DNA of 64,000 bases, taken from assembly GCA_964106915.2 (NCBI GenBank), contig OZ066927.1. One strand, written 5' to 3'. This stretch comes from Podarcis gaigeae (lineage: Eukaryota). A model generated the notes under the pieces. The model was given only the letters and a program-made list of their open reading frames with translations, had not been told where the DNA came from and ran no database searches. Both the position numbers and the translations under genes were made by a program. This document shows positions 27,777 to 33,700 of the stretch, one piece after another; the stretch's first letter is position 1, and every line of letters starts with the position of its first letter.

Positions 27777-30700
27777 TTAGAGGGAGTCATTCCATGTTCC
27801 TGTGTCTCCACGCAGGTGCCAATCAGCCTTTGAAACAACAGTAAGAGCTGGCTTTTCTGTCACAACTGCCTGAGTGGCACGGTTATCATCTCTGTTTCCA
27901 TCTAGAATACAAGAAGATAACTACTTTATACCAAGCTCAGACCATTGATCCCATAAGCCAGCTACAGCTTTCCCACCCAATCAAGAACCAAGGACTGGGA
28001 TGAATTCAGAAGGATGCTCTGTCATTTCCCCTACCCTGAACCTGGCTTTTCCCCACCTCAAGCCCTTTCAACACTTCACCCACCTTGAAGCCTAAGTTAT
28101 AAACTATACATGTTATGTTGTTGAAGGAGTAAAAACAAGTTAAAGTTAAAGACTGCCTCATTCTCCCCTCCCCCCCACTGCCAATGTTTGGGCCTGCCAA
28201 GTTCAACAAGACTTATTCCCAAATAAGAGTTAATTAAGATTGCCAATTCAGTGGTACCTCGGGTTAAGAACTTAATTCGTTCTGGAGGTCCGTTCTTAAC
28301 CTGAAACTGTTCTTAACCTGAGGTACCACTTTAGCTAATGGGGCCTCCCGCTGCTGCCGTGCGATTTTTGTTCTCATCCTGAAGCAAAGTTCTAACCCAA
28401 GGTTAGCGGAGTCTGTAACCTGAAGCGTCTGTAACCTGAGGTACCACTGTATCAGTGTTGTGTGGGAGGAGGAAATAATTTTGCTCAACTTACTCAGGCT
28501 TGTTTCATACGAAATTCCATGTTGAGTAAGTAAATCTGTAAGCCTCTTCAGATCTTTAGAAAGTTCTTTGTACTCCTAGAAAATAAGACGTCAATGGTTA
28601 TCCACAAATACAAGTAACAATTTAACATAAAAGTTCAAAAATTACAAAATGCCCAAATAGAGAAGCCATGAAAACAAAAGCAAAGCAGATGCCCTTTACG
28701 TCATCAAGATAATGATTATGTCTGGAAGAGCCACTCTAATAGCAGGCTTGAAATCCAGTTGGGGCCTTGCCACTCTTTACCCCCATCCATAGCACTTTTA
28801 AGCACTGGGCAACGTTCACTGATGCTAATCATTCCAGCAACTTCTAACACACCTCCCACTCAGTCTATGCCTATTTTTTAATAGACCAAGTCACTGAAAC
28901 AGCACAGGAAGAAGAATGCAGAATGATAAACAACAGCCACGATGCACCAGCCTAGCACCTCGGGCACCAATTTCTGTACCTTATTGCACTTTTCCAGTGA
29001 ATCAAATTCCACGTGTTGAGGCTTTGTTTTCTTTCCCTCACTCACTTTCTCTCCAGTTAATTTAAAGAAGCCTGCTTCTTCAAATATCTCTTTCAACCGT
29101 TTATTGTATCCCTAGAAAACAAAATATCATATAAAGCCTTATTTTTACCCTCCCAATTGCTATTTGCTTTTCACCTGTTTTCCAGGAGCCTGGCCTCAGA
29201 ACTGGGAGCCAGCATTTCAGCACTGGCCAGCTGGATTTTAATGACTCGGGTAAAATACATTTATGAAAATCAAGTATCCCATTTGAAATTCACGTATTTC
29301 CTGAACACATGCATACTCAAGTAGTTACTCTAATAATGAAAACATTTGGCTTACAATTAAGTAGCAACTTTGCACGACTTGAATATAGCAAAACATCTGG
29401 ACCATGCTACCCATCAGACTTTTAGGTTACTTTTCTTTTTTGCTTTTATTCTGCCCTCCAGAGGTTGAAACTATGATTTCCTTGCATTCCACCACCCCCT
29501 TTTGTAGATTTTTACTGGCATGCTAATATTTTTAAATTGTTTCTGTAGTTACTGTTCATTTCTTTTATTAAAAAGCCTTGGAATACGATATGAAAGAGGG
29601 TTTATAAAAAACCAAATCTGTTCCCCAAGATAAGACAAAACAAACCACCTTGAAAAAAGCATTTTCCCTCAAAAAGCTTCAATAGTTCCAGGTTTATTAC
29701 ATGTCTATCTGCCAGTCCACAACTTTTTCCAGTCCATTATTAGAATCATCCTCCAATTCACTTGATAGATTACCAATATTTTAAAAGATTAGAACACAGG
29801 TGTCAAACACAAGGCCCGCGGGCCGAATCCGGCCCGCCAGACCTCGTCATGTGGCCCGTGGCATCAAGGGTGAGGAAGCGAGCTTCTCGTCCTTTTTACT
29901 GGTCCCGACCCAGATTTTAGGGTCCGCACTCCGGCGGAGGTTCTCTGCCTTTCTAAAAAGTGACCCACGCAAACAGCCTTCCCTGCCTGCTTGCAGACAG
30001 GGCTCCAACCGACACGCCCCATCGGCGCTGCCTACTGGCTGGTCCCGCAACTTTTGCCTACCTCGCGGGCCGGGCAAAGAGGCTTTCTGCTCGCTCGCTC
30101 CAGTCCGGGGCTCGCTGCGGAGGAGGCAGTCCCGCGAAGCCAAGCTCGGAGCCGGCTGCCTCCGCCCCTTGGAGCCTCCCGGGCGTGGCTGCTCGAGGGG
30201 GCGGGTGGCGTGCGCGGCAACTTTTGGAGCCTGAGAGAGCCGCAGAGGCTGGCAACGAGGGCAGGGAGCGAGAGCCATGCTTGGGACGCCGCTCGCTCAC
30301 TCACTCGGGCCACAAGAAGAGGTCACTGCGGCGCTGCAGCTGGCGAGGAGATGGCCGGAGACGCGGGCAGCGGGGCCAGGGGCTGGCTGGGGGTCGCCCT
30401 GGTGGGTAAATAGCGGGGACGGCAGGCGGGGAAGGAAACGGCGGAGGCGAGTGGAGAGCGGGGACCCAGTGCAGGTCCTGCCGCAGGCGGCGCGCCCCGG
30501 CTGGGCTGGGAGAGGCGAGGCTGCTGCCGGTTCAGCTGCGCAGAGTGGGGTGGAGGGAGCCAGGCAGGCGGGTGGTGTGCCACACCACAAAGCAGGGGCG
30601 CCTCCCACCCCGAAAAGGACCACGCCGGCATCTGGGCGGCTGGAGCAAAGTGGGAGCCTGCCAGCAACTTGGCTGCGGGAGCCTGGCTACGAACCCCCCC

Positions 30701-33700
30701 CCTTCCCACGCCAACACATTGGCTTTCTCCGGGCCAGAGGACTTGGCGGATAGCCCCCTCCCTGGGAGCAACTGCAGCAGCTCGGGGCCCCAGCAGGACA
30801 TCCTGGCCACCCGCGCCCGCAGTGCCGCTGAGGCTCCCTTGCAAGGAAGAAACTGCTGCTGTCCAAACTGCTGCTCAGTATCCTCCGACTCCTGAGTGCG
30901 GCGGCAAGGCGGGGGGAGGCAACATTTGCTTCTGCTCTGCTCTGTTGGGACAGGCTCCTGCCTCCTCCCCGTTGGAGCTCCAGTCTGCCTGGAAGCCCAT
31001 CTCGTCATCTTTTTAAAAAATCATTATTATTTCTTCTTCTATTCTTATTTAAAATCGTACTGGAATAGGTATATTAAATAGTGTATAGGTTCAAGACAAC
31101 ACACACCAGTGCCTAAGGAAATATAACTTTGATAAAGTCCTACAGATACAACTGGCCCTTTGAGGGTGACCAAACTGCTGATGCGGCCCCAGATGAATTT
31201 GAGTTTGACACCCCTGGATTAGAAGTACAGGCTACAGGATCAGCTATATATTAATTTAAATTATTATTTAAAACCAAGTTGTTTTTAAAGAGAGAATCTA
31301 TAAATCAATCTCAGTCAATTTTGAGGGGAAGCTATGTCATTGCTTTATTCCACCCCACCCACTGTGCTATATACAGACTGCAAGGTTAAATACGGAAGCG
31401 GTACCTTAAAGCCTTTCCTCTGAGCAGCCTTCACACCCTAATTAGGGAACAGCCAGGGCAAGACTTTGAATGTAGCAGCACTGAATGAAGGCCTAAGCTG
31501 AGCTGAGCTGGGCCTGGAGTGTGCCTGGAAGGGAGGTTCCCTGTGATAGCTGTGTGTGCCTCTCGGGGTTCCACAGAAGCAAGGTAGGACAGAGATGTAA
31601 CAAAGAAAAGAAGCAAACCTGTTTTGTGATTAGCTCAGCATAAAGCAACTGTTCCACTTCATCCCACTTCCTCCGGAGGGTTTCAGGCAAAGCTGGATAG
31701 ACTGTAAAGAGAAAAGAAAAATCAGTGCACCACCCTTTGGAAGGTTTCAGTCCACCATCTTGATTCAAAATTGCATGCAACAGTATCTAAATATAGACAG
31801 AACCCCCCCCCCTTTCTTTAAGGAATCATCATACAAAATTTCATAACAGTATCTTAAGAGGTGCCCAAATACATAATGAGCAGGCAAACAACTTCCCAAA
31901 TATATAGATGATGAAAATGAAAATGACAATCATCATCTCTGCAGTCAGCCATGCACTGCAGCAGCAACATTGAAAATCTGGCCAGAGAAAGCACATCTCA
32001 GAAATCAAAGGAGGCATCATGAGGCTCCATCACTCTTTGCTATCTCTGCATCACAAAAGTGGAACCTTGGTGATGGGAACTCTGGTGAAAGGGCCTTTTG
32101 CAGTAAAAGCTAGCATCACTGCAGTGCCTCCTGGCACTCTCCCAGAAATGGAGGTATTTAACCTACCTAAGAGAGAATGTGGGTGGCAAACTAGTGGAGT
32201 TTCAAATGTAAGAGAATAAACACAAGTGCTCGGTTCAGACACGTGAGCCAGTTTGTTGTTCTTTCCACAGACAAGAAGAACCTGAAAAGCAAGAAGTGAG
32301 AATAAGTGAAAAAAGCCATTTATGGCTTCATATTACGTCAAATCCCATTTCACTCTGGATCATTTCCTGGAGTAGTCAGTGAGCATCAAGCACTGTCATG
32401 AGATTTAACAGCACCAAGTAGTCATACCTTGGGTTGAAGTCGCTTCAGGCTGAGCGTTTTCAGGTTACACTCTGCGGCGACCCAGAAATAACAGAACGCG
32501 TTACTTCTGGGTTTCGCCGCCTGCACATGCACAGACGCTCAACATGATGTCACGTGTATGCGCAGACGTTGTGAATCGCAACCCACGCAGTCGCGGGTTG
32601 CATTCTACTCAGGATGCGAACGGGGCTCTGGAACGGATCCCGTTTGCATCCAGAGGTACCACTGTAGTCCTGTTTCTTCCCAAAGACAAGGAACATCACG
32701 TAGCTTATCTTGCTGTAGGCAAGCATACAATCAGACTGTTAGGAGAAACTTACAGTATTACCTAAGTGCTTTGTAAAGAAAAATGTCTCAGATACCATTC
32801 CTTGGTGGTGAAATAGCCCAATGAAGAACCAAATTCTTCTCCTGTGCAAAGCCTGTCTGTCCCCTTCCCCTTTTTACAAGTGTTGTGATGAAAGCAAGGA
32901 ACACTTTCAAAACTTGTAGATGGCCAAAAGGTATTTTTGTTCTTTAGTACATCCTTACTGCTTACCTTTGTTTGTCGGTTCCTGGTTTCACACGAATCTC
33001 CATCTCTCATCCACATACCAACAAATGTATTGTTTTCAATTTCCCATTCATGCCAGATTCTAGAAAGAAAGTAAACAGGTTTAAAAAAATCTGTTTTTTA
33101 AGAAAACCTCAAAGGGAAAAGTGGAATTTGGTGCCATCAATCATGGTATCAGTAGTTAATGGCCTTTTCTATAAAGTGGTGCTGACAGTCTACTCTGACA
33201 TGCAGCCTGCAGGGTTCTGTTTTGTCTCAGGCTATGAAGCATCTGTTCCCCAGAAACAAATGTGTCAGTCTAACAGGGCAGTTAAGCAGCTAGGCGACTG
33301 CAGGATAAGTAATACCCAGTCACTTAATGTATTTCATAAAAGCACCAGCTTAAGACTAATACAGGCACAGTAAGGGCACTGTGTGCTAAGACTTAAGCCC
33401 TGTAATAACTTATACTGCAGTTCTGAAGGTTTGAATCCTTGGGGTGGGCAAAACTGTAGAAATCTAGTTTTCAACTGTATACTAGCACGGGCCACAAATG
33501 TGAGTGAATTTGAAGGTGCTGCTTTTAACTCTCCTGTTAAACCAGGCAGTTTTTTGATCCTAGAATACTAGCTTTTAAATAGTCAATAACAAACAAATAT
33601 TGGAACAAATGTCAGAACCCGCTTACCCGAGAATTCCACTGTAGGCATTCCACCGGAAAGTCTGCTCATGCTGGGTGACATTATGGAAGGGGCAGAATTC

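Follow-up and report, generated by a model that had tools for sequence, protein, structure and literature searches.

Why does a transposon in the intron of a lizard gene look like a CpG island? The locus lies in a 64,000-nucleotide stretch of Podarcis gaigeae DNA (contig OZ066927.1, assembly GCA_964106915.2), which we call the window, and the intron is the eighth of GNPTG. A sequence-only reading of the window had noticed a hAT transposon with a CpG-rich interior there and proposed a Pack-type element, that is, one with captured host DNA. We argue that it is a non-autonomous hAT in which the 5' end of SCN4B has taken the place of the interior, that this chimera spread to ten sites, and that the copy in GNPTG is a young and likely silent one whose CpGs are being lost. 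We put the probability of this reading at about four in five.

The element is 1,422 bp long (29795-31216). Its parts, with the target-site duplications (TSDs), the terminal inverted repeats (TIRs) and the host intron, are:

29112..31618, minus strand: GNPTG intron 8, the host intron, from exon joining, a PDB match and a splice joint
29787..29794, no strand: left TSD, 8-bp GATTAGAA, of the nnnTAnnn type
29795..29860, plus strand: left transposon arm, 66 bp, with a 14-bp TIR at 29795-29808; aligns with positions 1-66 of the parent element L225 and with plain family members
29859..31137, plus strand: captured SCN4B DNA of 1,279 bp, from the upstream region through exon 1 into intron 1, 92.3% to the TIR-free donor L011
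30351..30405, plus strand: copied SCN4B exon 1 coding sequence (beginning of the signal peptide), frame still open, antisense to GNPTG
30406..30411, plus strand: weakened splice donor GTAAAT (GTAAGT in the donor gene)
31136..31216, plus strand: right transposon arm, 81 bp, with its TIR at 31203-31216; 97.5% to L225 positions 2526-2606
31217..31224, no strand: right TSD, 8-bp GATTAGAA

The sequence-only reading had claimed a TSD, 14-bp TIRs with two mismatches, a GC- and CpG-rich interior between poorer flanks, the absence of a transposase and a position in GNPTG intron 8. All of these hold. The 8-bp GATTAGAA stands on both sides, and the TIRs CACAGGTGTCAAAC and CAGGGGTGTCAAAC are identical at 12 of 14 positions. 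One mismatch is family-wide (the left end reads CACGGG...), and a CpG transition in this copy accounts for the other. The 1,111 bp from 29900 to 31010 are 68% GC and hold 82 CpG, with an observed/expected ratio (o/e) of 0.64. The flanks are 37% and 43% GC with a CpG o/e of 0.28 and 0.09. A CpG island is usually taken as more than 200 bp with GC above 50% and CpG o/e above 0.6, and this interval exceeds all three values. No transposase sequence is found in the element, since the parent matches only element positions 1-66 and 1342-1422. Positions 67-1341 lie outside parent coverage and form a non-transposon interior between TIR ends. The element has no tandem repeat, and no AATAAA on either strand. 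As for the intron, ten minus-strand GNPTG exons with AG/GT ends join as one open frame, and one of them matches the GNPTG chain 7s69 (E 2e-15). An RNA-type contig joins 29110 to 31618. Together with the exon reading, this splice places the element in intron 8.

Where did the interior come from? The whole element and its interior were each searched against the same genome, and both searches returned the same 11 places (276 candidates in the whole-element search, 40 of them scored). Ten places have both ends. The eleventh is L011 (G000:C28:16366366-16367646, minus strand), which is on another contig and has no family ends. Its match runs exactly from one arm boundary to the other and overlaps each arm by 2 nt (TG and AG); the left overlap sits within a 6-of-7 match. 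The donor stretch is a CpG island (o/e 0.79) that holds ATG...GTAAGT. The coding part of its exon 1 is 43 nt long, ends in phase 1 and is in frame with exon 2, which lies 8 kb downstream. Exons 2 and 3, on the same strand, match sodium channel Nav beta-4 (E 4e-16 and 6e-13). Upstream of the donor, also on the same strand, a reading by eye gives an SCN2B-like gene. Since L011 is the single TIR-free source and its exon 1 is in frame with the Nav beta-4 exons, the cargo is the SCN4B 5' end. It comprises the upstream region, exon 1 and part of intron 1 (0.73 kb) in one piece, antisense to GNPTG. The upstream part is probably the SCN4B promoter, judging from position and composition.

The proposed Pack-type capture of promoter or first-exon DNA is therefore confirmed by a single-copy host donor and by shared ends, and elsewhere in the genome the same ends enclose different interiors. 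Some details need correction. The cargo is CpG-rich as described, but its true size is 1.28 kb (29859-31137) and not about 1.1 kb. What had been taken for an AT-rich right arm is SCN4B intron 1 at 31010-31135, not transposon. Captured fragments had been suggested, but the cargo is a single continuous donor piece.

One could instead suppose that the interior belongs to the transposon itself or arose by segmental duplication, since the 1.4 kb match end to end at ten places. We give this virtually no chance. The interior is absent from the parent L225, it codes for an SCN4B exon 1 that keeps the frame of the real gene, and the copies have unrelated flanks and different TSDs. With a TIR-free donor at L011 as well, we consider this idea refuted.

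The ten TIR-bounded SCN4B copies have ten different 8-bp TSDs, nine of them exact and one with a single mismatch. At non-CpG positions the GNPTG-intron copy is 1.1% from the copy consensus, and the copies are 2.9-3.8% from the donor. A tree of the ten copies and the donor sets L010 apart and puts the GNPTG-intron copy on a weakly supported branch (71), but it gives no order of jumps. The orthologous intron of relatives was compared in six organism labels (A, B, C, D, E and G). Three of these, C, D and G, have long contigs that span an empty site, which holds no cargo-free element either; G also lacks about 44 further bases. Organism E carries the insertion, with a contig that reaches 43 letters into the left end, past the 31 letters of our rule. 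In A and B the contigs reach 29-30 letters into the ends, just below that rule, and both likely carry it. Run X1, one of the sequencing runs, may come from the source sample. Given its non-transposon interior, unlinked parental copy, distinct TSDs and empty orthologous site, the SCN4B element is a multicopy Pack-hAT.

SCN4B exon 1 varies in length among these sequences. Nine copies have 12 nt more than the donor, and L010 and a donor-type contig of organism C have 9 nt fewer than these nine. The copies appear to record older states of the SCN4B signal peptide, although the changes are unpolarised. A contig of run X11 with the donor flank has a depth of 107 over window positions 29854-31014, versus 16 for single-copy flanks. 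This is probably the donor and its copies collapsed by the assembler, and contig depths are not taken here as copy numbers.

What kind of transposon is this? The family has at least 67 exact left-end matches. Its parent L225 (L225:1578-4183) is near full length at 2,606 bp and has both ends in common with the GNPTG-intron element. The transposase of L225 is broken by frameshift into frames of 378 and 246 aa. These match the Pfam Spin-doc zinc finger (E 1.5e-10, above the cut-off) and DUF4371 (E 4e-6, below the cut-off), and a PDB search with the transposase gave no match. The octamers at the two ends of L225 differ. No intact autonomous copy was found among 20 of 40 places examined. Bounded elements number 75, including the ten copies found through the GNPTG-intron element, and 57 of them are fully covered by L225 and are thus plain internal deletions. 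An exact 8-bp TSD is present in 66 of the 75, with T at place 4 in 65 of these 66 and A at place 5 in 65. The nnnTAnnn consensus is that given for TcBuster (PMC3499496), and the family resembles Buster/Charlie/SPIN-type hATs in this 8-bp TSD and in the Spin-doc zinc finger of its parent. By these features the element ends would be those of a 2.6-kb Charlie/Buster-type hAT. We found no report of this family in the open-access literature, which does not cover Repbase or Dfam. Plain elements such as L016 have the parent left subterminal region (positions about 135-200), which is lost from the SCN4B Pack; this region holds candidate NRF1-like and CTCF-like motifs.

Is the cargo still a working island? 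CpG decay was scored at sites common to the donor and the copy consensus. Over all copies there are transitions at 116 of 1,733 CpG sites versus 52 of 5,867 non-CpG C/G sites. The GNPTG-intron copy has them at 16 of 174 CpG sites (9.2%) versus 8 of 590 other C/G sites. In both counts CpGs are lost about seven times faster than other C/G sites, and the excess from the consensus to the GNPTG-intron copy has a p of 5e-7. The branch from the consensus to the donor is weaker, non-significant and unpolarised (6/201 vs 6/621, p 0.08). The GTAAGT splice donor is retained only in the donor and in one of the ten copies (L010). CpG erosion is expected in DNA that is methylated in the germline. The sevenfold bias implies that the element is young and likely germline-methylated, and it is likely not a protected island. 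Its island look seems to be inherited and to be eroding now. It is also likely silent, as far as one can judge from a mutation pattern that reports the germline only. The sequence-only reading had left a choice between a very young element and an unmethylated, delivered island. The first alternative stands, but the second does not agree with CpG transitions at seven times the non-CpG rate.

SCN4B is not the only cargo of the family. The 67 left-end matches were chosen regardless of interior. They comprise 47 plain deletion forms, 16 with CpG-island cargos (7 donors), 2 with an AT-rich cargo (1 donor) and 2 interrupted by other repeats. Each other cargo searched has exactly one place without the family left end. 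Besides SCN4B the cargos are:

RFXAP cargo: 4 copies; Pfam PF15289, E 5e-24
SORCS-type cargo, best match SorCS2: 7 copies, 6 with a TSD; E 7e-11
PKD2 cargo: 13 loci, 10 with an exact TSD and 3 with shared flanks on C31; E 4e-9
PACS cargo (PACS1): 2 copies; PACS1 E 8e-5
unnamed island cargo, donor on C1: 9 copies, 8 with a TSD
island cargo, donor on C2 with a tRNA-synthetase exon on one side and a CARD-bearing gene on the other: 3 independent copies and 7 places inside a larger repeat (6 fetched)
AT-rich cargo, donor on C16: 2 copies

The neighbours of the C2 donor are likely QARS1 and QRICH1. On our reading, the first coding exon lies within the captured piece for five donors. The same hAT family has captured host DNA at least eight times, seven of them at CpG islands. 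The binomial chance of 7 islands in 8 captures is 6e-9 given a 5% background. The sample favours young and amplified elements, and it weights donors by copy number.

Several members of these groups have structures of their own. Hybrid-ended elements (L170-L183 with donor L174, and L075/L094 with donor L237) combine the left end of this family with a right end from a second hAT family, which is resident at the donor. Given their 8-bp TSDs, the ends of the two families appear able to work together. In L199-L204 (element about 1300-2520) a Pack copy recurs with identical flanks and TSD on different contigs, at 7 places in all, and it would be riding in a larger repeat that amplified later. The PKD2-type copies L112, L113 and L114 on C31 have shared flanks in a low-complexity repeated region, and two are split by an insertion like a long terminal repeat retrotransposon. 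Variants of a single cargo (L189-L194 vs L099, L197 vs L103) differ in large internal deletions and in their reach into the donor, which extends about 460 and 560 bases further, so the founding captures were longer or repeated. The SORCS-type copy L166 has an inverted piece that turns back at about 1730-1830, and no right end was found in this locus.

Several observations weigh against our reading. The transposase frames of L225 have no match to the Pfam hAT dimerisation domain. The capture step is read from 2-nt overlaps, which can be obtained by chance. Two of the eight captures (PKD2 and the AT-rich one) terminate in a hAT element that sits at the donor, as suits other routes. None of 90 insertion-flank windows is island-like; surviving insertions show no promoter targeting. 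The GNPTG-intron copy still has an o/e of 0.64, an intact ATG and a GC box. Finally, an organism G run guessed to be RNA has contigs of a transposon-type SCN4B copy (29831-30356 and 30413-31137, depth about 22-24). They lack the indels of the donor-type DNA contig of G, and they start 30 letters inside the arm. Organism G itself lacks the GNPTG-intron insertion. This is a weak hint that some other SCN4B copy is transcribed in G, from contigs that show neither start, strand nor level.

How could the capture have happened? An element broken by excision or caught at a stalled fork likely copied 1.28 kb of the donor via the 2-nt microhomologies, by template switching during repair or replication. 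The FoSTeST model as described by Tan et al. 2021 has donor DNA copied through microhomology (PMC8277862). The parent's transposase, supplied in trans, would have moved the chimera to further sites, and germline methylation would have followed insertion. One can imagine composite transposition instead, where ends of the element went in at the donor or next to it and mobilised the intervening DNA, with no template switching. The PKD2 and AT-rich captures, with the right end of a second hAT family at the donor, speak for it, as does the weak preference of TcBuster for CpG islands and start sites (PMC3499496). However, no family ends are found at the junctions of SCN4B, RFXAP, the SORCS-type cargo, PACS1 and the two other island donors. 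The arms also stop at differing internal positions of the parent, as deletion-plus-fill repair would leave them. We think composite transposition decidedly unlikely. The PKD2 and AT-rich captures reflect one of two events, copying that continued as far as a usable end, or else composite transposition.

Why islands? We lean, by a little, toward open promoter chromatin as the template or meeting place that is most available to a Buster-type transposase. The TcBuster preference fits this too, and open chromatin has been proposed to favour acquisition by rice Pack-MULEs (PMC5861414). It is less probable, yet a serious competitor, that any DNA is captured and that promoter-bearing elements stay accessible, transpose more and so dominate the sample. 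Island cargos have about 2-13 copies and the AT-rich cargo has 2, in a sample that weights donors by copy number, and in the bat Helitron work promoter-bearing elements reached higher copy numbers (PMC4224331). On the other hand, cargo-free plain forms are the majority (47/67) and the PACS1 cargo also has just 2 copies. Methylation-type decay is seen in all cargo groups, with a donor-relative CpG excess of 3.6 to 7.2 fold in the 7 island groups. Because the sample favours young, amplified elements, capture bias and amplification bias are not separated here.

Does the insertion matter for its neighbourhood? The relevant features are:

34589, minus strand: start codon of GNPTG
34691, plus strand: start codon of TSR3, head-to-head with that of GNPTG and 3.4 kb from the element

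The plus-strand frame matches Pfam Fer4_RLI, and the name TSR3 is that given in the sequence-only reading. The GNPTG-intron copy could be a delivered promoter, unmethylated in some somatic tissue, that fires antisense through GNPTG exons 8-1 toward TSR3. Its plus-strand orientation suits this, being antisense to GNPTG and sense to TSR3. The ATG, the GC box and the o/e remain, the insertion is common to more than one organism label, another SCN4B copy gives the RNA hint mentioned above, and many Pack-TIRs form chimeric RNAs according to Tan et al. (PMC8277862). Against it, CpG loss of 9.2% is among the highest of the ten copies, the splice donor is weakened, and the insertion is absent in organisms C, D and G. 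A fusion would also be out of frame, with phase 1 at the end of SCN4B exon 1 against phase 2 for the first exon of TSR3 on our reading. We consider a delivered promoter very unlikely. From the sequence, a regulatory role for this copy, such as the internal or antisense promoter that the sequence-only reading had considered, is not supported, and the insertion is probably neutral for GNPTG. Two more CpG-rich stretches lie in the window, at 45500-47500 and 55000-55500.

How does this family compare with known systems? Helitrons are rolling-circle transposons without TIRs or TSDs. Bat Helitrons such as HelibatN3 with NUBPL are, like the lizard family, vertebrate DNA transposons whose captures are biased to promoter DNA, to the 5' untranslated region (UTR) and to the first exon and the first intron and were then amplified. 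The bat elements have thousands of copies, while the lizard family has tens and moves by cut-and-paste (PMC4224331). Rice Pack-MULEs likewise preferentially duplicate GC-rich sequence and make a sharp local GC jump at the insertion. Unlike the lizard family, which is a short-TIR hAT of a vertebrate, they are plant elements that belong to the Mutator superfamily and have long TIRs and TSDs of 8-11 bp (PMC5861414). The closest match in the parts of Tan et al. used here is Pack-hAT-N8_XT of Xenopus tropicalis (CAPSL 5' UTR). There, too, hAT ends enclose host 5' DNA, the parent is TIR-free and lies on another chromosome, several copies exist that differ in their TSDs, the junctions show short microhomology and the cargo is GC-rich. 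The frog case has 3 copies of 291 bp, whereas the lizard island cargos are 0.8-1.5 kb with about 2-13 copies each (PMC8277862).

The survey of Tan et al. covers 100 animals and counts 370 Pack-TIRs, or about 2 for every 10,000 TIR elements; 4 are multicopy (1.4%), and multicopy ones tend to be GC-rich (PMC8277862). In contrast, one lizard family has 8 captures, and of its 67 young members sampled 18 carry host DNA. For lizards and snakes that survey shows 0 Pack-TIRs and 0 hAT elements, so squamate hATs are in effect unsurveyed and the comparison of rates is loose (PMC8277862). The notable part is the repeated, island-biased and amplified capture by one family. A bolder extension, against which we would wager, is that this family is a vertebrate counterpart of the Pack-MULEs, harvesting CpG-island promoters and first exons far above the published animal average, and that some of its roughly 55 island copies, the one in GNPTG perhaps among them, act as new tissue-specific promoters.

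Multicopy gene capture by cut-and-paste transposons had been regarded as rare in vertebrates, and here there are at least 7 island captures in one young family. The donors are intact, several copies of each are dated and close relatives have empty sites, which makes the family a natural experiment. It addresses why captures favour GC-rich gene starts, through a bias of capture or of amplification. It also addresses whether CpG island sequence alone stays unmethylated once it has been moved, and the decay suggests that inside these transposon ends it does not.

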